DNA of 47,557 nt from Patescibacteria group bacterium (GCA_018829965.1 JAHJTG010000005.1:1-47557); one strand, 5' to 3'; shown: positions 84-34,179, counted from the first letter of the stretch. Notes: generated from the letters alone by a model not told the origin. Numbers and translations: made by a program.

Positions 84-126
84 TTTTTTATCTTATCAAA
101 GAACCACCTCAATTGAAAGGTGGTTC
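84..126 (-). terminator. Cassette hairpin repeat, copy 1 (terminator plus extended -10 TGATAAGAT)
   Basis: GAACCACCT-caattgaa-AGGTGGTTC stem-loop; near-identical copies at 2100, 29607 and 31838. Confidence 0.75.
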
Positions 127-143
127 TTGACACGACTTGATGA

Positions 144-170
144 CTCCGCGGATGGGACGATTTTCGAACT
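144..170. repeat. att-like junction containing the tRNA-Asn 3' end fragment
   Basis: CTCCGCGG-atg-GGAC aligns with CTCCGCGG-cca-GGAC at 23117-23131; reads LRGWDDFRT in frame with ORF 171..359. Confidence 0.75.
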
Positions 171-251
171 TTGAGATGGGTGGATTTTATTGAAAAACCT
201 GAAAAGTTATTAGATAATGCTAAGATTGTTCTGACACAAATAACCTTAAGT

Positions 252-3123: not shown

Positions 3124-3544
3124 ATACCTGATTGAATTTCTCTTTAACTATTTTTATAACTCTATCAAGCTCTGCTTTGTCTACATTTTTGCAATCATAT
3201 TCATCAACAAATTTCACCCATTCATCGTTCCGGGGAGTGAAAAATCGTATCTCATCTATTGAATACGCGCTTTCGTCGGGCTTCAACACCTCCATTCTTC
3301 CGCCGGCCCAACCCTTATATTTAGGATCCTGAATAATTTCCTCAATAAATGAAATAGTATACTCCTTGTCTCTTTTCTTTTCAGAATCAACAATTTTCTC
3401 TACCTCTTTGTTGGTAATTTTTGAACCAGAAAGCCGCATTGAGGCGCCAGTGCTCTCAATTAATGTTTTTCTTTTCTGTTCCTTCCAAAACTCGGTGTTA
3501 AACCGATTGCCAGAAGGACGCTTTTTTGTTTTTTTCTTTGTCAT
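3110..3544 (-). CDS. Hypothetical protein with a Fic-N-terminus-like segment
   Basis: LIESTGASMRLSGSKITNKEVEKI resembles the N-terminal helix of Fic proteins; no HPFxxGNGR motif. Confidence 0.55.
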   Translation of the reverse strand: MTKKKTKKRPSGNRFNTEFWKEQKRKTLIESTGASMRLSGSKITNKEVEKIVDSEKKRDKEYTISFIEEIIQDPKYKGWAGGRMEVLKPDESAYSIDEIRFFTPRNDEWVKFVDEYDCKNVDKAELDRVIKIVKEKFNQVYDQK

Positions 3545-12294: not shown

Positions 12295-12362
12295 CCAGCT
12301 GTGGGTAACTCGCTTGGCTTGTGCCAAGGGTAAGCACATAATGGGGGTTGCCAAAAAACAAT

Positions 12363-14063
12363 ATGAAAAATGCATTAATTTACTGCCGAGTATCAACCGA
12401 AGAACAAGTTAAAGAAGGCTACTCTTTAGACGCGCAGGAAAAATTCTGCGCTAAATTTGCTGAAAACGATGACTACCGAATCGTGGAAGTATTTAGAGAT
12501 GAAGGCAAAAGCGCCACCACCCTTGATAGACCAGCCCTTCAGGATCTTTTAGCCAAATGCCAGCAGGATGACTCTGTTGACGCTGTATTCGTTCAGGAAA
12601 CAGACCGGCTGGCCAGAAACACCAAAGATCATCTGACCATCAGGGCTGTGCTCCAAAAAGCAGGAGTTAAGCTCGTTTCTGTTGCCCAGCCAATGCTTGA
12701 TGACAGCCCGGAAGGCAATATGATTGATACGATTTTGGCCAGTGTTAATCAATTTCAATCTGACCTTAACAGCCGAAAGACCAAAAAAGGCCTGCAGGAA
12801 AGATTTGACCAGGGCTGGTGGCCGGGCTGGGTGCCGCTCGGTTATCTTAATGTGGGTGTGGGCGGCAACGCTGACGGCCGCAAAGCCAAAAAGATTATTA
12901 AAAAAGACCCGAAAAGATTTGATCTGATTAGAAAAATGTTTGATATGGTTTTGAGCGGAAACTACTCTGTCCCTCAAACTCACACTATCGCAGTTACCGA
13001 GTAGGGTTTTAGAATGCCCAACGGAACTAAAATGTCCCGAAGCACTTTTTACTCTGTTATTGGCAATCCTTTTTATTATGGCTATTACGAATATCCAAAA
13101 AAGTCTGGCATCTGGCATAAAGGAAAACACCCGGCCATGATCACCAAAGACGAATACGATCAAATTCAAAATATGATCAGGCCAGACAATATCAAGCCAA
13201 TGAAGCACGTATTCGCTTTTACGGGTTTAATTAAATGCGGTGAGTGCGAAGCCACGATCACAGCCGAACATAAAACCAAAAGACAAATAAATGGCAATGT
13301 CCATTATTACACTTACTACCACTGCACTAAACGAATAAACAAAAACTGTTCTCAAAGAGTAATTCAGGTGCAAGATTTAGAAAAAGAGATCGCTGAGATA
13401 TTGGGAGGTTTGACCATACCGCCAGAATTCAATGAATGGGCAATGAGCTGGCTTAAAGACGAAAACCACAAAGAAGCTGATGATAGAAACGATATTTTAG
13501 ATACTCAACAAAAATCATACAATGAATGCATTAAGAAAATTGACAATCTGATTGATATGCGAGCTGGCGGTGAGATTAGCGAACAGCAGTTCAAAGACAA
13601 GAAAGCCAAAATTGTTAAAGAAAAAATGCACTTGCAGGAATTATTAAAAGATACAGACAAACGAGTAGACAATTGGCTGGAACGAGCAGAGGAAGCGTTG
13701 ATATTTGCCCAAAACGCCAAACTTGCCTTTGAAAATGGAACATTACAGAGAAAAAGAGAGATACTAAACACCTTAGGTTCGAACCTCCTGTTAAAAGACA
13801 GAAAACTGCGTATTAACTTGGAAAATTGCCTTTTGCCCATGCAAAAAGTCGATACTGGGTCCGGCAACAAAAAAAGCGGGTTCGAACCGCTTGATTTGTG
13901 CGTAGATAAAAGGAAAAACACCGCTTCAGGCGGTGTTCGTCCAGATTGGCTCCCCTTCAAGAACGCACTTACTCGGTTTGATTGGAGAGCATTTAGGGTT
14001 GAGCTGGACGCCTTTGTCTCAACTTATAATATCTCTTTGGGCGGAAATTGGGGCGGAGTATAA
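12363..14063 (+). pseudogene. Large serine recombinase interrupted by an in-frame TAG (13002-13004)
   Basis: YCRVST, DRLAR and Zn ribbon CGEC...YYHC; ORFs 12348..13004 and 13014..14063 are in the same frame. Confidence 0.85.
13917..13976. repeat. Hairpin plus att-like junction inside the 3' end of the LSR
   Basis: AACACCGC-ttcag-GCGGTGTT then TGG CTC CCC TTC AAG AAC (WLPFKN), positionally equivalent to LLRGQD in the other LSR. Confidence 0.55.
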
Positions 14064-17443: not shown

Positions 17444-18574
17444 ATGAAAATAACTTACAAAAATGAGCGATTAAAAAAGGAATTTTATAAGTGGCTCAAA
17501 AATTCAAAACAATTTTCAGAAGAAACGATTAAATGCTACGAAAAGGCAGTTTGGCTGTGGGAGGATTTTTCAAACAAAGACGATTTTGGCAGTTTCAACG
17601 AAACAACGGCGGAGGCATTTCGGGAATGGGTAAAAAATAAAAGAAAGCATAACTCCCAAGAAATAATTAGCATTACTTATTGTTATCATAATTTACGATT
17701 TCTAAAAACCTTTTTTGTATGGCTATCTAAACAAAAGGGCTATAAATTAAGAATAAAAGAGCCAGCTATTGATTGCCTTAATTTATCAAAAAATGAAGTT
17801 AGGGAGGCTAAGCAGGTTAAGAGCATTAAAAATCCAACACTGGACGAGATAAAAATGGTTATAGAAACCATTAAGGGAAAAACCGAAATTAAAATGAGAG
17901 ATAAAGCCATTTTTTCTTTGGCTTTCTTGACTGGGGCAAGAATTTCGGCGATTAGGACGCTCCCAATGAAAAGTTTTGATAAAAAAGAATTGATTATTTA
18001 CCAAGACCCTGCGTTTGGAGTTGAAACGAAAGGCAATAAAAGGATTGTTTCTGTTTTAATCCCTTTTGGTTATGAAGAGGCAAAGGACTATTTTATTGAA
18101 TGGTTTGACTATCTAACAAATCAGAAAGGGTTTGAGCCAGACGACCCCATATTCCCCGCCACTAAAATTGAAAATGGAAAAGATAACATAAATTTTTACA
18201 ATACGCAGGAGGTTGAAAATAGAAAGATAAAAAGCTCTGGCTCATTAAGGAAGATATTTCAGAAAAGATTTGAGCAAGCAGGGCTTAATTATTATCACCC
18301 CCACACTTTTAGGCATTGGCTTGTTAAAAGAATGGCAGAGTTTTCATTAACAGAAGAGCAGAGAAAAGCGTTTAGCCAATGTTTAGGACACGAAGATGTC
18401 GGGACAACTTTCGGCTCTCGGGGCTATGGGAGAATTGACGAGAGCAGACAAATAGATGTTATGAAAAGCATTGATTTTGAGGGATTAAAAGGAGGGAAAA
18501 AGCAGACAATAAGCGACGAGGATATAAGCCGAATTGCAAAACAAGTTAGCGAGAGTATTAAAAATAATACTTAA
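17444..18574 (+). CDS. Tyrosine recombinase/integrase
   Basis: TGARISAI, TK, HTFRH, LGH and catalytic Y (RGYG). Confidence 0.9.
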   Translation: MKITYKNERLKKEFYKWLKNSKQFSEETIKCYEKAVWLWEDFSNKDDFGSFNETTAEAFREWVKNKRKHNSQEIISITYCYHNLRFLKTFFVWLSKQKGYKLRIKEPAIDCLNLSKNEVREAKQVKSIKNPTLDEIKMVIETIKGKTEIKMRDKAIFSLAFLTGARISAIRTLPMKSFDKKELIIYQDPAFGVETKGNKRIVSVLIPFGYEEAKDYFIEWFDYLTNQKGFEPDDPIFPATKIENGKDNINFYNTQEVENRKIKSSGSLRKIFQKRFEQAGLNYYHPHTFRHWLVKRMAEFSLTEEQRKAFSQCLGHEDVGTTFGSRGYGRIDESRQIDVMKSIDFEGLKGGKKQTISDEDISRIAKQVSESIKNNT

Positions 18575-21646: not shown

Positions 21647-23155
21647 ATGAAAGCAGTAATACTCGCAAGAGTTTCAACAACAAGGCAAGAAGAGGAGGGG
21701 CACTCGCTCCCCGCTCAAATAAGGAGGTTGCAGGAATACGCAAAGAAAAAAGGCTTTGAAATAGCCGAGACTTTTTCTTTTTCTGAAAGTGCGGGAGGCA
21801 AAATTAGAAAGAAATTTGAAGAAGTTATGACCTATATCAAAACTCATAAAGATGTTAAAGTTTTGCTTTGCGAGAATGTTGACCGAGCGACAAGGAACTT
21901 TAAGGACGCTGTTGATTTAGACGAAATGAGAAAAAACGAGGGTTTAGAAATTCATTTCGTCCAAGACGGATTTTTCATAAATAAAAATGCTACTGGCAAC
22001 CAAATGTTTATGTGGGAGGCAAAGGTATTTATTGCCAAGCAATACTTAAACCGATTATCTGATGATGTCAAAAGAAGCAACGAGCAGAAGCTACAAAATG
22101 GCGAATGGATAAACAAGCCCCCGATAGGATACATTGGCACGATAGACCCTAAGGGCAACAAAGGAATGATACCAGACCCGTTAAAAAGCCACCTTGTCGT
22201 TAAAATCTTTGAAATCTATGCTACTGGGAGCTCCTCAATTCTAAAGATTAAAGAAACAATGGACGCTCTGGGTTTAAGAGGCAATACAAGGGACAATAAG
22301 CCCCTCTGTAAGAGCCAAATACACTATATCCTTAATAATCCCTATTACTACGGCTTAATGCGTGTTAACGGGCAATTATACGAACATAAATATGAACCCT
22401 TAATAACCAAACAACTTTTTGATAGAGTGCAGGAAGTATTTAGTGGTTATGATAAAAAACCTTTCAGATATGGTTGTAAGCCTTTTGTATTTAGGGCTAT
22501 GGTAAGATGTTCAGAGTGCGGGTGCTTGATTGGCGGAGAGCTTAAAAAAGGACACTATGTTTATTATTCTTGCAATAATTATAAGAAAGTCCACAAGCAA
22601 AGGGTTTATGTTAAAGAGATTGATATGCTTGAACCAGTTCGCAGGGTTTTAGAAAAGATAAAATTAACAGACCAACAAAAAAACGAACTGATAGAAGATT
22701 TTAAGAAATCAGACAAAAGTAAGAATAAGTTTGTAAGTGCCAAGCTCCCAGAGCTAACGGCAGAGTTTGATTTATACGAAACGAGAAAAAGCGAAACTTG
22801 GAATAAATATGTGGATAAGGAAATAAGTAAGGAGATGTATGACAAAAAATACAAAGAATATGACGACAAGCAGAACGCTATAAAAACCCAAATGGGAAAA
22901 TTCCAAGTAGCTGATGTAGAATTTTACACAACAATAAATATGATTGTGGCTCTCTCTCAAAGAGCCGAAGAAATCTTTGAAAGTTCTGAACCTCACGAGA
23001 AAAGGGCTTTTGCCAATTTCTTACTTCAGAACTGCCAATTAGAAGGCGAAAAGCTGAAATTTGAACTTAAAAGCCCCTTTGACGGGGCTTTATCTGCACA
23101 CGACTGTTCTAACTTGCTCCGCGGCCAGGACTCGAACCTGGAACCTTCTCGTTAA
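21647..23155 (+). CDS. Large serine recombinase whose 3' end overlaps tRNA-Asn
   Basis: ARVST, DRATR, CSEC...YYSC; final codons LRGQDSNLEPSR are antisense tRNA sequence. Confidence 0.93.
   Translation: MKAVILARVSTTRQEEEGHSLPAQIRRLQEYAKKKGFEIAETFSFSESAGGKIRKKFEEVMTYIKTHKDVKVLLCENVDRATRNFKDAVDLDEMRKNEGLEIHFVQDGFFINKNATGNQMFMWEAKVFIAKQYLNRLSDDVKRSNEQKLQNGEWINKPPIGYIGTIDPKGNKGMIPDPLKSHLVVKIFEIYATGSSSILKIKETMDALGLRGNTRDNKPLCKSQIHYILNNPYYYGLMRVNGQLYEHKYEPLITKQLFDRVQEVFSGYDKKPFRYGCKPFVFRAMVRCSECGCLIGGELKKGHYVYYSCNNYKKVHKQRVYVKEIDMLEPVRRVLEKIKLTDQQKNELIEDFKKSDKSKNKFVSAKLPELTAEFDLYETRKSETWNKYVDKEISKEMYDKKYKEYDDKQNAIKTQMGKFQVADVEFYTTINMIVALSQRAEEIFESSEPHEKRAFANFLLQNCQLEGEKLKFELKSPFDGALSAHDCSNLLRGQDSNLEPSR
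23070..23091 (-). terminator. Probable tRNA-Asn terminator encoded inside the LSR gene
   Basis: AAAGCCCC-tttgac-GGGGCTTT, 25 nt past the tRNA 3' end. Confidence 0.6.
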
Positions 23156-23188
23156 CAGCGAGTTGCACTACCATTGTGCTACCGCGGA
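23117..23188 (-). tRNA. tRNA-Asn(GTT)
   Basis: TCCGCGG/CCGCGGA acceptor stem, CT-GTT-AA anticodon loop, GGTTCGAGTCC T-arm; CCA not encoded. Confidence 0.97.
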
Positions 23189-27576: not shown

Positions 27577-28338
27577 TTATTTTACACGGTAAATAAGGAT
27601 TACCGTTGAATCAACTTCTTGCTGTCCAGATTGTATTTGTGGAGTAGGAACAACGCCTCCTCCTAACTGCGCAACTTCGCTCTTGTATACTGAATCGTAA
27701 TAACGTGGAGAATAACTATCCTGAACATTTATCAGTTTGCCTAATTTTATTCCAGAGGACTTAGCAATATCTTCTGCTTTTTGTTTTGCCTTTTTTATAG
27801 CTTGTATTCTTGCTTCCTGTTGCGCTTTTTCCAGGTATTCAATAGAAAAACTAATATTGCCGATTAAATTTGTCCCCCTATCGTTTGCTTTAGCTAAAAC
27901 ATCTCCTATTTTTGTAAAATCTCTTATTGATACCAGAATTGTATTGGTTAATTTATAACCAATAAATATCTGACCCTTATCTTCTGTCCAATTGTATTGA
28001 GGAGCTAAATTATATTGGGTTGTCTTGATGTCTTTTTCATCAATCCCCAGCCCCTTTATATCCCCGATTAGCCCATTCATCGCTTCCGTATTCTTCTTAA
28101 TGATATCCTGTATGTCTTTTCCCTCGTTGACCATACTCAAATCTATTGTCGCTAAATCAGGAATGACATAGACTTTTCCCTCTCCGGAAACTGACAGTTC
28201 TTGAGGCGTGTTCCCCGGAATGGTTTTAAACTTATACACTAATCCGCCAATAACTGATAAAACCACGATCAAAATAATAACTACTGCTAAATTGAATAAA
28301 CGATTTGATAATTCTATTTTTTTTGTTTCTTCTTCCAT
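27577..28338 (-). CDS. SIMPL/DUF541 domain protein
   Basis: N-terminal TM; VSGEGKV..PD.A and AI..AK.KA..IA...G..LG motifs. Confidence 0.9.
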   Translation of the reverse strand: MEEETKKIELSNRLFNLAVVIILIVVLSVIGGLVYKFKTIPGNTPQELSVSGEGKVYVIPDLATIDLSMVNEGKDIQDIIKKNTEAMNGLIGDIKGLGIDEKDIKTTQYNLAPQYNWTEDKGQIFIGYKLTNTILVSIRDFTKIGDVLAKANDRGTNLIGNISFSIEYLEKAQQEARIQAIKKAKQKAEDIAKSSGIKLGKLINVQDSYSPRYYDSVYKSEVAQLGGGVVPTPQIQSGQQEVDSTVILIYRVK

Positions 28339-28417
28339 TGTATTTTCTTGCCCGCCTCAATATAAAAGCTTTGGGGCGAGTAAATTTGATTATTAATTTT
28401 AAGCGACCTTTTTTAAA

Positions 28418-29566
28418 TTAATTAGTAGTTGGCGTTAAGATTTTCTTATACAAGGCAATCGTTTTCTCAATCATAACATCAGACCTAAATTGTTCCGCAG
28501 TTTCTTTCGCATTCAAAGATAAACGGCGCCGTAAAACAGCGTCTTTAATCAAAAGGCTTATCTTTTCCTCGGCCTCAGCAAGGGTGCGAACAATAAACCC
28601 ATTTTCTCCATCGCGAATAATCTCAGGAGCTACACCGACAGGAAAACTAATGGGAACCAAACGCTGTGACATTGCTTCAATCAAGCTTAAAGAAAATCCC
28701 TCATAGCGAGAAGTTAAAAGAACAACCCCTCCCGCATATCTGTTAAGCATATCGGGGATAGTATCTTTAACCGCATTTACAATAACGGAATGATTTGGAA
28801 TATTGTCTTTCATCCATCGAGTTAATTTTTTATTCCGCGACATTAACACCGAAAATTTATCAACTTCTGGAAACTTCTCAAAAAGACATATAAGACGATC
28901 AACTCCTTTCAATTTTAGCGTAAATGAGTCTTCCCCAATTCTACCTAAGAAAATAAGGGATGGCTTATTATTAAAATCTGCATCTAGGGTTTCAAACCAA
29001 TAATCCTCTATTGCATTATGAATAACTTCAATTTTCTCAATTGCGATACCTACTCCAACAAGATCATCTTTCACTATATTAGACGTAGCTATAACATAAT
29101 TTGTATGTTCTGCTGCATATTTTTCAATGGAAGCAATATCATTTAACGGACGACGTGTCTTTATATTAAGCTCACGAATCGCACCAGATTGTTTTAAACG
29201 GAGAAAAACATCATTACATTCCTTCTCTAAAAGACCTGTTTTCGGAACAGCTCGTAGAAAACCTGTGGTGGTTGAACCAAAATGCGACACTACTGGTTTA
29301 GAAAAACGAAGAAAAGCAAGTGGCGTATAAGTTGTTCCTTGAATAATATCGTGACGCAATACTTCGTCACGTCTTTCTAATAGAGAATAGAAGAAAAGAA
29401 TATTGTTAATACCTTTGAAATGAGTAGGAGTATCATTGAGTAAGAATTGCGGGTAGAAATTATTCACCTCTACTTCTTTCTCTCTCAATTTACCGGCGAT
29501 AAGATCGTTAATAAAGTGGGCACCGGAACCTATCTTTTTATCACTATGAATAAATGCTATTTTCAT
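28418..29566 (-). CDS. Glycosyltransferase family 4 (cassette gene)
   Basis: TSRYEGFSLSLIEAM and EIIRDGENG; true start probably MKIAFIH at 29566. Confidence 0.9.
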   Translation of the reverse strand: MKIAFIHSDKKIGSGAHFINDLIAGKLREKEVEVNNFYPQFLLNDTPTHFKGINNILFFYSLLERRDEVLRHDIIQGTTYTPLAFLRFSKPVVSHFGSTTTGFLRAVPKTGLLEKECNDVFLRLKQSGAIRELNIKTRRPLNDIASIEKYAAEHTNYVIATSNIVKDDLVGVGIAIEKIEVIHNAIEDYWFETLDADFNNKPSLIFLGRIGEDSFTLKLKGVDRLICLFEKFPEVDKFSVLMSRNKKLTRWMKDNIPNHSVIVNAVKDTIPDMLNRYAGGVVLLTSRYEGFSLSLIEAMSQRLVPISFPVGVAPEIIRDGENGFIVRTLAEAEEKISLLIKDAVLRRRLSLNAKETAEQFRSDVMIEKTIALYKKILTPTTN

Positions 29567-29606
29567 AAATTTACTACGTGATGAATAGCCTAGGACCTCT
29601 TTCTTA

Positions 29607-29649
29607 TTTTTTATCTTATCAAAAAACCACCTCAATTAAAAGGCTGGTG
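29607..29649 (-). terminator. Cassette hairpin repeat, copy 3
   Basis: TTTTTTATCTTATCAAAAAACCACCTCAATTAAAAGG, nearly identical to 84-120. Confidence 0.75.
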
Positions 29650-29701
29650 AGGTGGGACGTCCGCCAAAGGACGGATCTCGCCTAAGGCGGAAACTTAAAA
29701 C
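29642..29701. repeat. att-like repeat with a 32-bp palindromic insertion (29660-29691)
   Basis: GTGGGACG[TCCGCCAAAGGACGGATCTCGCCTAAGGCGGA]AACTTAAAAC. Confidence 0.8.
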
Positions 29702-29723
29702 TTTTACCATAAAATCGTGTCCG

Positions 29724-30692
29724 TTATTTTAAAAAGTCTTCTACTTTTTGCCTTGCTTCAGACGAATTTTTGACTTTCATAAGACTCTCTCTAAGATCTT
29801 TAGCGCCTTTAAATCCCTTTGCATATTCATGGAAATGTTTTTTCATGCTATCAAACTGCTTACAACAGCCATCTTTTCCAATATCTTTTTTATAAAAATC
29901 GTCAAAAATTTCAGCGTGTTCAATAATAGCATTCAGTCGTTCTAAAATAGACGGGTAATGTCCGGAAAAAAACCAAGGATTTCCTAAAACGCCTCTTCCG
30001 ATCATAATACCGTCTAATCCTGTTTTTTCTACTAATTGACGAGCTTCTGCAATCGACCTTACATCACCGTTTCCTAAAATTAACGTCTCGGGCGCATAGC
30101 GGTCCCTGAGCCTTACAATCTCCTCTGCTAATTCCCAATTGGCAGGAACCCTATACTTTTCATTCCTAGTACGAAAATGTACAGTCAATGCAGCGATATT
30201 TTCCTTAAGAAGGGTAGGAATCCATTCGTCAATTTGTTTCTTCGCATATCCAATGCGCGTTTTTACCGAAACAGGAAGTTTCCCCGCCTCTTTTTTTGTC
30301 GCCCTAATAATCTCTTTTGCTAAACCAGGGCTTTTAATTAATGCTGCACCCCCTCCCTTTTTTTCTATATCTCTATTGGGACAACCCATATTAATATCAA
30401 TGCCATCAAACCCAAGCCCTGCGATCATCTCCGCTGCTTTTTCAAACTGAAGAGGATTTGACCCAAAGACTTGAACGACTATGGGGTGTTCTGCTGGAAA
30501 AAACTTTAAAATTTTTAGGCAGTGTTCTCTACCCTTAGAAAACAAACCGTCTGTTGAGACAAATTCCGTCCAAAAAACACTAGGCCTGCCATATTTCAAA
30601 AACATCAACCGAAACGCTTCGTCAGTTATGCCTGACATAGGCGCCACAACCATAATCGGTTTTTTTAACTTTTTCCAAAAACCAAGTTTCAT
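29724..30692 (-). CDS. tRNA-dihydrouridine synthase (DusB-like; cassette gene)
   Basis: APMSGITD, DINMGCP, SVKTRIG, GNGDV and MIGRG motifs. Confidence 0.92.
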   Translation of the reverse strand: MKLGFWKKLKKPIMVVAPMSGITDEAFRLMFLKYGRPSVFWTEFVSTDGLFSKGREHCLKILKFFPAEHPIVVQVFGSNPLQFEKAAEMIAGLGFDGIDINMGCPNRDIEKKGGGAALIKSPGLAKEIIRATKKEAGKLPVSVKTRIGYAKKQIDEWIPTLLKENIAALTVHFRTRNEKYRVPANWELAEEIVRLRDRYAPETLILGNGDVRSIAEARQLVEKTGLDGIMIGRGVLGNPWFFSGHYPSILERLNAIIEHAEIFDDFYKKDIGKDGCCKQFDSMKKHFHEYAKGFKGAKDLRESLMKVKNSSEARQKVEDFLK

Positions 30693-30746
30693 AATTCTAA
30701 ACACTTTTTAAAAAAGAACGCCCAGTCTTTCAAATGGACGCTCAAC

Positions 30747-30808
30747 CAGCGGGCCAAGTGGGACGTCCGCCAAAGGACGGATCTCGCCCAAGGCGGAAAC
30801 TTGGAACC
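30747..30808. repeat. att-like repeat with a 32-bp palindromic insertion (30766-30797)
   Basis: CAGCGGGCCAAGTGGGACG[insert]AACTTGGAACC. Confidence 0.85.
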
Positions 30809-30836
30809 TTTTTCCTAAAATTCAAACTATCTGAGA

Positions 30837-31280
30837 CTATACAGAATAAAACTTATTAGACAAATAATTATTCAAAACTTCTTGAGATGGTTGAAAAATT
30901 GGTTTTGGCAAACTACTTAATTCAAACCAACGCCATTCAGTGATTTCATCTGGTTCTTTTATCTCTGGCTCGCCACTAAAATCTTCGCATAAAAATCCGA
31001 CAGTAATGAAATGGGCATCAGAAACAATATTATTAGACAAACTGATAACTTCCATTTTATTAACTTGCATCCCCGTTTCTTCTAAAACTTCCCTTTCCGC
31101 TCCCTGTTCAAAGGTTTCTCCAAAGTGGAGTTTTCCACCAGGCATAGTCCATGTTCCCTCACCATGCAAAGCGCTTGATGCTTTCTCTGGGTCATCATGC
31201 CTTTTTCCTAAAAGAATCTTTTTATCTTTTAGAAGCATAACTCCAAACCCAACACCTACTTTTTTATTTTGTTGATCCAT
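30837..31280 (-). CDS. Nudix hydrolase (cassette gene)
   Basis: Nudix box GGKLHFGETFEQGAEREVLEETG. Confidence 0.92.
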   Translation of the reverse strand: MDQQNKKVGVGFGVMLLKDKKILLGKRHDDPEKASSALHGEGTWTMPGGKLHFGETFEQGAEREVLEETGMQVNKMEVISLSNNIVSDAHFITVGFLCEDFSGEPEIKEPDEITEWRWFELSSLPKPIFQPSQEVLNNYLSNKFYSV

Positions 31281-31353
31281 ATAGTTTAATTTAAAAAATA
31301 ATAATTTGGTGGGGCTTCGTTATTATAACAATAAAATTTATAAATAATTCCTT

Positions 31354-31382
31354 AGTGGGGCAAGTGGGACGAACTTGGAACC
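31354..31382. repeat. att-like repeat
   Basis: AGTGGGGCAAGTGGGACGAACTTGGAACC. Confidence 0.85.
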
Positions 31383-31410
31383 TTTTTTCTAAAATCTTGC
31401 TCGGATAATT

Positions 31411-31827
31411 TTATTTCATATAATCCCTCATTTTTTTAACTATATCTTTAACTTCCAAAAATACCTCATCGTTAACCATGTTTTCCTTTGCGTGGTTAAT
31501 TATCGGCCTAATTGATTCAACTTTATTACCAAATTTATTCATCCATTCATATCTTGGAAAAATCCATAAGTGGAAACCATGTCGTGACCCTTCGTCTTGA
31601 TAAAGACAAACTGTTTTGATACCCAACACATCTTTCATCCCCTTTCTTAACTTCCTAGTTAAATAAAGAAATTCATTCGCTTCTTTTTCATCAAATTCAT
31701 CTAAAGATACTCTATTTTTTATTGAGGCAACAATAAAAAAACCGGGGATAGGAACTTCCCAATCTTGATGAATATCAAAATAATCAGTGACAATTATTTT
31801 TTCATTTGGAAAAAATTGTTCTTCCAT
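31411..31827 (-). CDS. HIT-like protein (cassette gene)
   Basis: QDWEVPIPGFFIV and HGFHLWIFPRY. Confidence 0.75.
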   Translation of the reverse strand: MEEQFFPNEKIIVTDYFDIHQDWEVPIPGFFIVASIKNRVSLDEFDEKEANEFLYLTRKLRKGMKDVLGIKTVCLYQDEGSRHGFHLWIFPRYEWMNKFGNKVESIRPIINHAKENMVNDEVFLEVKDIVKKMRDYMK

Positions 31828-31837
31828 ATTTCAATTC

Positions 31838-31870
31838 TATCAAAAAACCACCTCAATTAAAAGGTGGTTC
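31838..31870 (-). terminator. Cassette hairpin repeat, copy 4, abutting extended -10 TGATAGAAT
   Basis: TATCAAAAAACCACCTCAATTAAAAGGTGGTTC. Confidence 0.8.
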
Positions 31871-31883
31871 CATAATCTTTAAA

Positions 31884-31913
31884 AAGCGGGCAAGATGGGA
31901 CGAACTTGGAACC
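31884..31913. repeat. att-like repeat
   Basis: AAGCGGGCAAGATGGGACGAACTTGGAACC versus tRNA-Ser end AAGCGGAGAGAGTGGGACTCGAACC. Confidence 0.85.
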
Positions 31914-32002
31914 TTTTTCCTAAAGCCTTACACTGATATCCCAAACTTAAGTCCCGCAAATATGGATTAAATATATCAAATTTTAGATTATTTCACAATT
32001 AT

Positions 32003-33028
32003 TTAATTTTTTATTATTTTCTCTAAATTATTCTTAAATTTCTTATGTGATAACAGTCTTATAACCGTTGAAAAGAACAGCCCCTTTAAAAATGGACTTC
32101 TTAGGAAAAACATATATTTTTCCTGATTTCTCTTTTTTGTAGTCCATTTTTCTATTAAATTTGACCCTCTTATACTGATACTGAGAATATCTTTTGCTAC
32201 CTGTTTCCCAGATAAAAAGGCGGAATTTATCCCCTTGCCCAAAATGCCAGAAGTTAGCCCAGAGGCATCCCCTACTAAAAAGATATTTCCAAACTTATAA
32301 CCCCTGTAATCATAGTTAATCAAAGCTCCCTCAAATTTAGCTCCTGTCATATCAAAATTATTATTCTTTAGCCAAAGGTCAAAATTATCTTTTAGCATCG
32401 GCGGTTTTATAAACCTCAAATCGCTCCCGCAACCGATAGAGGTATAATCAACATTAGGGAATATCCACAAATAGCCCGTGCCAAAAAGTTTGGCATCTAA
32501 ATAAACCTTAAACCCGTCTAATCTCTTTGGAATAATATATTGAATTGCAATTTCCATTTTTTTTATCGTTAACCCAAGAAATCTTCTAACCATAGAGTCC
32601 GAACCGTCTGCACCAACCAAAAATTTGAATTGAAGTTTCTCTCCGCTATTTAGCTTTAACGAATTATCAGAAAATATCTCCGAAACCGATGAACCGAATA
32701 AGAAACTGACATTTGGAAATTTTTTAAGACTTTCTAATCGGTGATTTAATATTTTTTCTCTGTTAACGGTTGAAATAATTCCACCATTATTTGGGAATGA
32801 TACCACTTTATTTTTATAATGAATTTTAACTTTTTGAAAATCAAAGTTTATAAGGTCTTTGGATATATAATCTAAGTCATTAATGATAACTCCCTCTGCA
32901 CATATTTTCCTTGAGATTTGTTTCTTCCTTTCAATTACAAGAATAGTTAAACCTGAATCCGCTAAATTTTTGGCGCATTCTAAACCAGCAATTCCAGAAC
33001 CAACAATAATTACATCATAATTTTTCAT
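32003..33028 (-). CDS. FAD-dependent oxidoreductase, geranylgeranyl reductase-like (cassette gene)
   Basis: GSGIAG, GADG, GYLWIFP and LVGDASG motifs. Confidence 0.88.
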   Translation of the reverse strand: MKNYDVIIVGSGIAGLECAKNLADSGLTILVIERKKQISRKICAEGVIINDLDYISKDLINFDFQKVKIHYKNKVVSFPNNGGIISTVNREKILNHRLESLKKFPNVSFLFGSSVSEIFSDNSLKLNSGEKLQFKFLVGADGSDSMVRRFLGLTIKKMEIAIQYIIPKRLDGFKVYLDAKLFGTGYLWIFPNVDYTSIGCGSDLRFIKPPMLKDNFDLWLKNNNFDMTGAKFEGALINYDYRGYKFGNIFLVGDASGLTSGILGKGINSAFLSGKQVAKDILSISIRGSNLIEKWTTKKRNQEKYMFFLRSPFLKGLFFSTVIRLLSHKKFKNNLEKIIKN

Positions 33029-33075
33029 ATTCTATAATTCTAACTAAAAATCGCCGAAAAGGCGATTTTAAAAAG

Positions 33076-33159
33076 CGGAGAGAGTGGGACTCGAACCCAC
33101 AAGCCCTTACGGGCGCACGCTTTCCAAGCGTGTTCCTTACCAATTCGGAGCATCTCTCC
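33076..33159 (-). tRNA. tRNA-Ser(GGA)
   Basis: GGAGAGA/TCTCTCC stem, CACGC-TT-GGA-AA-GCGTG, long variable arm, GGTTCGAGTCC. Confidence 0.96.
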
Positions 33160-34179
33160 TTAATTATATTTCTGCTTTAAAAAACTCTTTAATCTATGTT
33201 TATGATATAGGTTACTAAATCCCACTTCTTCGGCATAACGATAAACTTCTGATTCCCTGTAAAGATTTACTCCTTTGAAAAAAATTTTGGGATGAAAATT
33301 TAATGTTTTTAATGCTTTATATACAAATTTCAAAATTGGCGTTGAACGATTTGAAAAATTAAGCCCAATATTTAAACAATCACATCCATTAATTCTATGT
33401 TTATGAAGATAGACGCAACCGTCTGTATCTATTAAACCACGAAGGCAATGTTTAGAAAAATTCTTATTTACTTTAATCCAACGTGGGACATCAACTTGTT
33501 GTCTTACCTTATTGCCTATCTTAAGCCCTTTAGCCAATAAAAAATCAATAAAGGATGTACTGAAAATAGTTATGCGTCCAACATTTTTATGACTTCCGTG
33601 ATCGCTGTAATAAACCACCGGACTTATTGAAAACAAATTTTTAATTAAATCACATACAAATAGTATATATTCTTTAGAATCTTCTTTGTGTAAGGTTATC
33701 GCCGCCTGCGTCTTACTGCTAACACCACCATCTCCGAGCATGATACCAATAAACTCCGCTAAATTAATGCTATTTTTAGGCTCAGAAATGATCTTAGGCA
33801 AATTACAATTAGGATAAAGCTTAGGATAAAGCCTTCTTTTCTCCTGCGAGACTAATCCGCCTTTTCTCCGACCCATCGGCGTACCGGGACCTCCATATTT
33901 TTTTGCAACAATAAGTCCTCCCTTTTTACCAGCTTTAACTGTGCTCCAAAAATCAGGCAAAAGTTTATATTCAGGAACTTTGATTTTGTCTTTTGCTAAT
34001 TTCAAAAAAATCCTAAAAGCGTCTTCCGAAATAGTGGATTTTGCTTTTCGCCAATCTAAAATAGTTCTAGAACAAACTTTCGCTTGTTCGCCTAAAGTCG
34101 CCCAGCTCAATTCTGCCTTATGATAGAGATCGTAAAAAAATTCAACTTGACCTTTCTTTTTAATCTTTACTCGTGGCAT
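33160..34179 (-). CDS. Free-standing LAGLIDADG-family protein with N-terminal HTH and KGG repeats
   Basis: LAEFIGIMLGDG and CLRGLIDTDG motifs. Confidence 0.85.
   Translation of the reverse strand: MPRVKIKKKGQVEFFYDLYHKAELSWATLGEQAKVCSRTILDWRKAKSTISEDAFRIFLKLAKDKIKVPEYKLLPDFWSTVKAGKKGGLIVAKKYGGPGTPMGRRKGGLVSQEKRRLYPKLYPNCNLPKIISEPKNSINLAEFIGIMLGDGGVSSKTQAAITLHKEDSKEYILFVCDLIKNLFSISPVVYYSDHGSHKNVGRITIFSTSFIDFLLAKGLKIGNKVRQQVDVPRWIKVNKNFSKHCLRGLIDTDGCVYLHKHRINGCDCLNIGLNFSNRSTPILKFVYKALKTLNFHPKIFFKGVNLYRESEVYRYAEEVGFSNLYHKHRLKSFLKQKYN

Follow-up and report, generated by a model that had tools for sequence, protein, structure and literature searches.

Single-gene modules bounded by tRNA-end-like repeats behind tRNA-Ser(GGA) in a Patescibacteria genome: a possible accretion array without its own recombinase

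We describe a 4.7-kb row of five co-oriented, minus-strand open reading frames (ORFs) that starts directly 3′ of the gene for tRNA-Ser(GGA) in a Patescibacteria group bacterium (GCA_018829965.1; genome of 740 kb in 18 contigs, 35% GC), and in which most genes are followed by a copy of a repeat that ends like a tRNA. The row lies in the first 47.6 kb of contig C3 (JAHJTG010000005.1), a stretch of 47,557 nucleotides (nt) to which we refer as the window and in which positions are counted from the first letter. We put at about one half the probability that this row is an accretion array, i.e., a set of one-gene modules without a recombinase of their own that was built by recombination behind the tRNA gene. 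The repeat resembles the borders of recombinase-bearing islands, so the row was probably made via site-specific insertion, although movement itself was not seen. The case is built on the anatomy of the repeat units, a junction point that they have in common, the swapping of flanks at that point, the different gene content of the same slot in relatives, and the finding that three of the genes are accessory.

The four repeat units of the array, all on the minus strand, occur in two forms. The short form, of 41 nt, is represented by U1 (31886..31926, ending ...CGTCCCATCTTGCCCGC; sequence-model match E 1.6e-10) and U2 (31355..31395, ending ...CGTCCCACTTGCCCCAC), and the long form, of 73 nt, by U3 (30749..30821) and by U4 (29643..29715), in which the arms are degenerate. 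The difference is a 32-nt hairpin, located 17 nt left of the junction in U3 (30766..30797, minus strand) and intact in U4 (29660-29691). The claim of an earlier note on this DNA that a repeat lies between the five genes holds in that the four units are real, but two of them are split by this hairpin, which the note had left undescribed: it separates TGGGACG from AACTTGGAACC, the motif is non-contiguous in U3 and U4, and the 23-mer given in the note is found in the window only at 31365 and 31896, both exact, with up to three mismatches allowed (0.00 expected, 100 shuffles). Two more long units are present on contig C7 at 2563-2635 (C7a) and 3466-3538 (C7b), one gene apart, following a NADAR-domain gene and a 244-amino-acid (aa) ORF without a family, respectively. 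The genome therefore holds six units at two loci, each directly behind one gene and with sharp ends, starting (on the minus strand) from a few to ~75 nt past the stop codon; the genome-wide scatter that would speak against tRNA-linked insertion was not seen. A sequence model made from the six units retrieves all of them from the genome (E 1e-10 to 1e-28), and an extra weak, partial match (C16:119645-119670, model positions 2-27, 15.8 bits, E 0.009) was not counted as a unit. All six carry the arm GTTC..CGTCCCAY, and they terminate sharply in ...CCCGC, with CCAC in U2 and CAGC in U4.

The evidence for a recombination junction comes from an alignment of all sites in the genome that end like tRNA-Ser, i.e., three tRNA-Ser genes, the six units and the type-B arms on C7 and C2. 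This demonstrated a common end, CCGC, in the units (with the U2 and U4 variants given above), in two of the tRNA-Ser genes and in the type-B arm family. Beyond this end, flanks are found joined to different left arms. For example, the flank of tRNA-Ser(TGA) on C17 is also the type-B flank at C7:285 (20/20 nt, and 87 nt at 100%), with unrelated left arms that agree at 11/24, and the U2 flank TAAGGAAT.. recurs behind the type-B arm at C7:2050 (15/20; left arms 13/24). The flank of tRNA-Ser(GGA), TTTTTAAAA, recurs behind C7a; its 20-mer is perfect only at C3:33046 and C7:2646 in the genome, and C7:2620-2688 matches window positions 33023-33090 at 84% over 68 nt (E 2.3e-11). In addition, the U4 flank is similar to the flank past the far border of an island at tRNA-Asn that carries a large serine recombinase (LSR) (C3:29603-29648 versus C3:81-124, 91.3%, 46 nt). 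In each case the identity between partners starts or stops at CCGC, which places the crossover inside CCGC (tRNA positions 71-74), and we infer from these sequences an exchange 8-10 nt from the GGAC core where it had first been proposed. Breakpoints away from GGAC were among the outcomes that the earlier note had named as refuting its reading, but the correction is one of detail and not of the whole idea. A very short shared core suits a serine recombinase better than a tyrosine recombinase. One apparent joint, 30821 to 33046, was considered as a deletion and rejected, since it corresponds to a 912-nt contig of the C7 paralogue. Contig C7 also carries a perfect 112-nt inverted repeat (C7:282-393 and C7:1939-2050), each copy of which ends in a type-B arm plus CCGC; between the copies lie genes for a helix-turn-helix protein and an HNH endonuclease, together with part of an ORF of 149 aa, and this layout is seen again in an independent metagenome contig (L037).

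The anchor of the array, tRNA-Ser(GGA) (33075..33159, minus strand), was called by ARAGORN and by the Rfam tRNA model (50.1 bits), and we propose that insertion took place at its 3′ end, ...GTCCCACTCTCTCCGC. Read along the minus strand, a module would consist of a right-hand arm, usually with a terminator hairpin and a -10 box, then an accessory gene, and then the repeat as its left-hand arm, 41 nt long or 73 nt after insertion of the 32-nt hairpin. The right flank of the tRNA gene (33040..33074, minus strand) comprises TTTTTAAAA, the hairpin TCGCCTTTTCGGCGA, a T-run and TAGAAT; U1 is followed by the hairpin AACCACCT..AGGTGGTT with a T-run (31842..31870, minus strand) and then by TAGAAT and ATG; and the right flank of U4 (29601..29648, minus strand) holds a hairpin, GATAAGAT and an A-run. 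A hairpin with a T-run follows U1, U3, U4 and both C7 units (as judged by folding for U3, U4 and C7, and by alignment for U1), and TAGAAT-like -10 boxes appear by eye ahead of most start codons. The hairpins behind these units agree with the order of attachment site, hairpin, -10 box and gene described in the earlier note. As that note had stated for the Nudix unit, none is evident after U2, and a consensus scan for terminators and promoters flagged neither the hairpins nor the boxes. A terminator-like hairpin with the conserved loop AACCACCTTTTAATTGAGGTGGTT is present in eight copies in the genome (window 98-126, 2104-2126, 29621-29643 and 31842-31864; C3:140685, C8:98, C13:322 and C16:119372) and in many copies in relatives, often with the same GATAAGAT/TAGAAT box downstream.

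The link to serine recombinases is provided by the left-hand arm. The genome contains three intact LSR genes (C3:21647, C8:8059 and one on C14), one broken gene (C3:12348) and an N-terminal fragment (C7:1-119), all elsewhere in the genome than beside the array. All three intact ORFs converge on a tRNA gene and stop inside its 3′ part, this being tRNA-Asn for the LSR in the window, and tRNA-Gln for those on both C8 and C14. The window LSR (21647..23155, plus strand; Pfam) overlaps tRNA-Asn (23116-23188, minus strand) with its last 40 nt, and the putative far border of its island, ~23 kb away at 135..185 (minus strand), consists of the arm AAGTTCGAAAATCGTCCCAT and the core CCGCGGAG, which is the tRNA-Asn terminus. 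Of 18 occurrences of CGTCCCAY in the genome, eight are accounted for by the six units, by C3:159, where the arm is joined to the tRNA-Asn core CCGCGGAG, and by C8:239, where the arm possibly marks the distal end of the C8 island. On this likeness the unit is a member of the GTTC..CGTCCCAY arm family, which lies on the element side of putative LSR island borders. The similarity noticed earlier between WDELGTFF, as read in the repeats, and LRGWDDFRT, at the recombinase-tail junction, is a protein-frame shadow of this arm motif.

We propose that the repeat mimics the part of a tRNA from T-loop to terminus, stopping at the CCGC of tRNA-Ser genes, and that modules would be joined through site-specific recombination of the conservative type, the crossover being very short and lying within CCGC. 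The enzyme would most likely be one of the LSRs of the genome acting in trans, which is favored because the repeat belongs to the same arm family as two putative island borders. The earlier note had advanced an LSR acting in trans at the tRNA; the motif in common with these borders agrees with this, but excision, circles and presence/absence variants were not seen. It had also put forward the LSR at 21647, or another LSR of the host, as a possible recombinase for these sites. We found no link between the LSR at 21647 and tRNA-Ser, the site of this LSR being in tRNA-Asn; it is a candidate helper only, and its closest relative in the genome is the C8 LSR (and vice versa), at 30% identity. The mechanism as first outlined is plausible, then, with a wrong crossover point and with mobility unproven. 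The order of insertion, like the enzyme and any present-day mobility, is part of the proposal, and the array may now be fixed.

The LSR genes have features of their own. Their reading frames cross their own attachment sites (window 23091-23155 and 135-200; C8:9480-9519 and C8:225-262), so that integration swaps the codons at the 3′ end of the gene. If translation is continued into the far-border arms, the excised genes would give tails of LRGWDDFRT.. on C3 and LRLWDDVRT.. on C8, whose coding sequences show several synonymous differences. This is an indication that the C-terminus of the LSR encoded by the circular form is a different one and is conserved. The region from window position ~150 to 23155 is a composite island between tRNA-Asn and a pseudo tRNA-Asn end, and contains the intact LSR, the second LSR with its TAG break (12348-14063) and a tyrosine recombinase (17444-18574). 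The first 158 nt of contigs C3 and C8 are the same (98%), and the two sequences part at a site that resembles a tRNA end, so the assembly branches where one flank joins two arms.

The five array genes, all on the minus strand and identified by Pfam unless stated, encode an FAD-binding oxidoreductase of 341 aa (module 1, 32003..33028), a HIT-like protein of 138 aa (module 2, 31411..31827), a NUDIX hydrolase of 147 aa (module 3, 30837..31280), a dihydrouridine synthase (Dus; module 4, 29724..30704) and a GT4 glycosyltransferase (module 5, 28418..29635). The Pfam scan gave no match for module 2, whose assignment comes from the ESM Atlas only (feature score 0.95, TM 0.93). For Dus, which is the sole copy in the genome, the ATG at 30692 is the likelier start. 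The first backbone gene past the array encodes a SIMPL/DUF541 protein (27577..28338, minus strand; Pfam).

Comparison with relatives demonstrated that the slot behind tRNA-Ser(GGA) is a variable hotspot. In four relatives (G001, G002, G013 and G015) the order of the genes upstream of this tRNA is kept, i.e., GroES/GroEL, a Zn-ribbon protein, LemA and M48 (named from likeness to the window genes), and the gene content 3′ of the tRNA differs in each of them. In G002 and G013, SIMPL-sized ORFs with a similar N-terminus and then a DnaG-like ORF lie downstream of the tRNA, as identified by reading. In G013 the tRNA is followed by a 190-nt stretch with a GGTTCTAAC...GTCCCAC..CCGC pseudo-end, then by a 305-aa gene, and then by a copy of the tRNA-Ser 3′ half, whose flank directly follows the tRNA-Ser gene in G001 (GGA) and G006 (GCT). 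In another genus, then, an insert of one gene and no recombinase lies between copies of the tRNA-Ser 3′ end. In G015 we found a bare tandem copy of the tRNA-Ser 3′ half. The three array genes that were compared are accessory. Dus occurs in 20 of the 79 genomes of the family, which represent three of its 16 genera, with a best match of 75% in genus g10 versus 67% within the same genus; the module 1 oxidoreductase has a best identity of 35% among 40 relatives, with the others at 26-31%; and the HIT-like gene of module 2 was found in 0 of 40 relatives. A supposed oxidoreductase/HIT-like/Dus block conserved with g10 (G080) was discarded, its proteins being homologous only in the dinucleotide-binding motif.

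Two further features were observed around tRNA-Ser genes and the array edge. A LAGLIDADG-type ORF (window 33160-34179) adjoins or overlaps the 5′ end of tRNA-Ser and is found in three genera (also at L031:7490-8533 and L041:2158-3198), with identities to the ORF of this genome of 78% in G013 and 39% in G077; a fragment lies upstream of tRNA-Ser(TGA) at C17:31189-31317. Such a tRNA-Ser-linked homing endonuclease could itself drive exchange at the array locus. The motif TGGTGTGGGGGCAAG occurs seven times (C3:196559, C8:74199, C8:74884, C8:76988, C8:80290, C9:4822 and C16:92289), one copy being 7 nt upstream of a start codon, and the related GCGGGCAAG precedes the start of the SIMPL gene at window 28347-28355.

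A number of results weigh against accretion at this tRNA, and we set them out here with the other explanations that they favor. The first concern where the repeat came from. As in the earlier note, the terminal 24 nt of each unit can be read against the 3′ end of tRNA-Ser(GGA) without gaps, with 11-14/24 agreements and the common part GTCCCAC..CCGC, but this likeness is not significant by itself: local alignment of the units to this tRNA gives a score of 17, no better than shuffles (null median 17-18), and the pseudo-acceptor part of the units (TTGGCCC and like) differs and is unpaired with the tRNA-Ser 5′ strand, so that the units cannot be displaced tRNA-Ser ends. Among the 41 tRNAs of the genome their best match is tRNA-Asn (AAGGTTCCAGGTTCG, 14/15, covering the variable loop and T-stem), with a local score of 25-26 where 95% of the null lies at 22. 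An origin of the repeat from the transfer-messenger RNA (tmRNA) gene (C3:128062-128483) was rejected, its 3′ end being unlike the units. Copies of a T-arm plus acceptor also lie just behind true tRNA genes (Gly, Ala and Thr) and are not called as tRNAs; such copies, at C8:80247, C9:4778, C3:202658, C3:202810, C16:179 and C8:78583, may be further attachment-site scars or half-tRNA elements.

The tRNA likeness could alternatively mean that the units are 3′ untranslated RNA elements, i.e., tRNA-like tags for processing or stabilizing the transcript ahead of its terminator. Consistent with such tags, each unit is preceded by a stop codon and followed by a hairpin and T-run, and the units resemble a tRNA T-arm with a compensated stem (CCAAG/CTTGG versus CCAGG/CCTGG in tRNA-Asn, by reading). 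This pairing is lost in U1 and U4, however, and folding of the short units is not above that of shuffled sequence (z +0.64 and +0.88), without the imperfect hairpin typical of attC. The Rfam search of the window at gathering thresholds, and of 29550-32000 at E<=10, returned two tRNAs and three sub-threshold chance matches, and neither ARAGORN nor the Rfam tRNA model, even at E<=10, called a tRNA at any unit in the window. The lack of a fold above shuffles and of an Rfam family argues against an RNA element, and on these predictions we regard this explanation as very unlikely.

The narrow distribution of the units is a further difficulty for accretion. Among 78 other family genomes, the unit sequence model gave one weak match (21 bits, G048); this look-alike follows a gene ~1.1 kb behind tRNA-Glu, and most other weak matches cover the hairpin region. 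The long unit, searched as DNA in the same genomes, revealed the inner hairpin alone in five and no unit. A 17-18-nt pattern had one probable chance match in 400 other genomes of the order, and a 22-nt pattern matched the C7 contig of the organism itself and one chance site in metagenome contigs, and nothing in genome contigs. Two patterns run on viral contigs gave nine chance matches in high-GC coding DNA for the first and none for the second. The unit is thus essentially private to the array genome.

This privacy favors another explanation, which we consider somewhat unlikely, in which the repeat is a private intergenic sequence of one origin (perhaps an old attachment-site scar or a tRNA 3′ half) that reached the ends of six genes through duplication, gene conversion or a minor copying process like that of repetitive extragenic palindromic (REP) sequences or miniature inverted-repeat transposable elements (MITEs), the genes being ordinary accessory genes and the repeat no working site. 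In its favor, U3 and the two C7 units are 97% identical. The arms of U4 are much less well preserved than its 32-nt hairpin, and across units the hairpin variants do not follow the arm variants, which suggests conversion or separate insertion, and the hairpin alone is a dispersed element in other genera. Copying of this kind leaves several features unexplained, namely the stop of the units at the terminal CCGC of tRNA-Ser, the swapping of flanks with tRNA-Ser genes and with the other arm family, and the motif in common with putative LSR island borders. In addition, six copies at two loci with a constant one-gene spacing are unlike a dispersed repeat, the short form has no fold, and no inverted ends or target duplications were noticed on reading the aligned units and flanks; a REP or MITE assignment does not fit such a unit. 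Taken together, these results support repeats that act like recombination arms and not like structured RNA or a dispersed repeat. Accretion has its own difficulty with the 32-nt insertion, which lies 17 nt from the junction in four of the six units (U3, U4 and both C7 copies) and might disable a recombinase site.

The 32-nt element is a double hairpin, TCCGCC-NNN-GGCGRR-TCCGTCCTTTGGCGGA, found at window 30766-30797 and 29660-29691, at C7:2587-2618 and 3490-3521, and at loci L012-L022. In genera g14 and g10 it occurs alone, beside tRNA genes and between 5S-like copies, and in one case at the T-loop-like junction of a tRNA-Gln-like fragment. Its stem 1 shows paired changes (TCCGCC/GGCGGA, TTCGCC/GGCGAA and CTCGCC/GGCGAG), and in these other genera it looks like a small REP-like element.

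Other counts against accretion concern the array as a whole. No unit follows GT4 (the intergenic region 28339-28417 was read, and gave no sequence-model match), so that the repeat does not close every module and the expected oldest junction is missing. The right-hand flanks have no clear common motif, and a serine recombinase should recognize both half-sites. As the earlier note stated, there is no recombinase domain in the five genes, and the Pfam scan found none in the scanned flanking genes either; the Phage_integrase matches of the genome (C16:7247, C16:8658 and C3:17840) are not beside the array. The array genome has no copy of the flank that lies behind a tRNA-Ser 3′ end in the relatives G001, G006 and G013. 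Eight genomes of g10 have Dus on the 3′ side of tRNA-Ser(CGA), separated from it by 0-3 genes, in tight groups that have no repeat (loci L038-L045), so the linkage of tRNA-Ser and Dus may predate the array and not reflect a fresh insertion. In g10, Dus is also upstream of a gene with an apparently IF-2-like N-terminus (by reading), and the genes between tRNA and Dus vary by genome, one overlapping the tRNA 3′ end in two genomes. Finally, no variant arrangement was present in the assembled Logan contigs that cover the array, from runs of three studies (two of which are possibly the source), an absence that proves little in contigs that break at repeats; in the run from a further study, the parts of the array that are covered have the arrangement unchanged.

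In another explanation the block was gained or rearranged in one piece, e.g., as the cargo-bearing end of a larger LSR element that subsequently lost its recombinase, with the internal repeats being junctions inherited from the donor and with no module-by-module insertion at tRNA-Ser(GGA). The stable arrangement in contigs from three studies and the lack of a distal junction with an ancestral flank agree with this, as do the base composition of the five genes, which equals that of their neighbors (GC 0.30-0.39; GC at third codon positions 0.25-0.32), and the unit arm, which is nearer to tRNA-Asn and to the arm of the putative tRNA-Asn island border than to tRNA-Ser. Set against it, the flank of tRNA-Ser(GGA) is part of the swapped set, so that one junction or more, beginning with the first, arose at this tRNA; a second array, on C7, has other genes and the same units; and the array genes differ in their phyletic patterns. 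We therefore judge acquisition in one piece to be quite improbable, and retain accretion by site-specific insertion as the preferred reading.

An accretion array of this kind would matter since reduced, host-dependent bacteria have few recognized routes of gene gain. If it is real, a 40-nt tag and a borrowed serine recombinase would suffice, which would explain the turnover of accessory genes among strains with 0.7-Mb genomes, and would represent a minimal cassette system built on serine recombinases, the enzyme class used in genome engineering. A stronger version, in which genes that bear promoters and tags of ~40 nt are inserted, excised and reshuffled at the CCGC of tRNA-Ser by LSRs in trans, is in our view unlikely; if true, it would be a functional counterpart of the integron made from wholly different parts, and perhaps present in relatives as well. 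Even if the array is fixed, the junction map yields a testable crossover (CCGC, tRNA positions 71-74) and candidate recombinase sites.

Integrons are arrays of single cassettes, each with an attC site, in which an IntI tyrosine recombinase is adjacent and promoterless genes are under a common promoter. The array is like them in having single, unrelated, co-oriented genes, a repeat after most of them and a crossover that we infer at one edge of the repeat. It differs in its tRNA anchor, in having no adjacent IntI and no attC-type fold, and in genes that apparently have their own -10 boxes and terminators. The array thus fails the defining integron tests (IntI and attC fold), and the likeness to an integron drawn in the earlier note is a loose one only. 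Our literature searches returned nothing that joins large serine recombinases, tRNA targets and Patescibacteria, and matches for the Candidate Phyla Radiation with serine recombinase, integrative and tRNA concern inoviruses.

Elements that accumulate without an integrase are known from other bacteria. In the accretion of streptococcal integrative and conjugative elements (ICEs; Pavlovic et al. 2004, as cited in PMC3146451), att-flanked units without an integrase rely on the recombinase of a related element. The modules of the array likewise have no integrase or transfer genes (Pfam) and are bounded by att-like units, which are putative recombination sites. The streptococcal cis-mobilizable units derive from, and adjoin, an ICE with a tyrosine recombinase at the same site, whereas no autonomous partner is found at the array tRNA. 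Tycheposons of Prochlorococcus, according to a preprint (bioRxiv 10.1101/2020.12.28.424599), integrate at tRNA genes, with stacked elements that have partial tRNA copies between them; their islands contain scattered degraded remnants and extra partial tRNAs, 27 of 937 use a large serine recombinase, and they are defined by their own integrase, often with replication genes. Compared with tycheposons, the modules of the array have no integrase, and the repeat that separates them is a tRNA mimic and not a copy of the local tRNA.

The closest known case is that of the ssrA islands of Dehalococcoides (McMurdie et al. 2011, PMC3146451), which lie in tandem behind the tmRNA gene, bounded by 20-bp copies of the tmRNA 3′ end with a conserved 15-bp element-side motif beside each copy. 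Their integrase is a large serine recombinase, with insertion placed in the T-loop region, and 15 islands without an integration module are proposed there to be cis-mobilizable and to grow by accretion (PMC3146451). Compared with these islands, the array is similar in lying behind a small RNA gene and in having a conserved element-side motif beside the repeat. It differs in that the anchor is tRNA-Ser and not tmRNA, the putative junction coincides with the terminal CCGC, the repeats depart from the exact sequence of the anchor's 3′ end, the modules are single genes of 0.4-1.2 kb and not multi-gene, no integrase-bearing member is found at the array tRNA, and the host is a 0.74-Mb groundwater bacterium. 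Stacks of modules that have no recombinase, at a tRNA or tmRNA gene, are already known from Dehalococcoides (PMC3146451), and the array is to that extent less novel than the earlier note implied.

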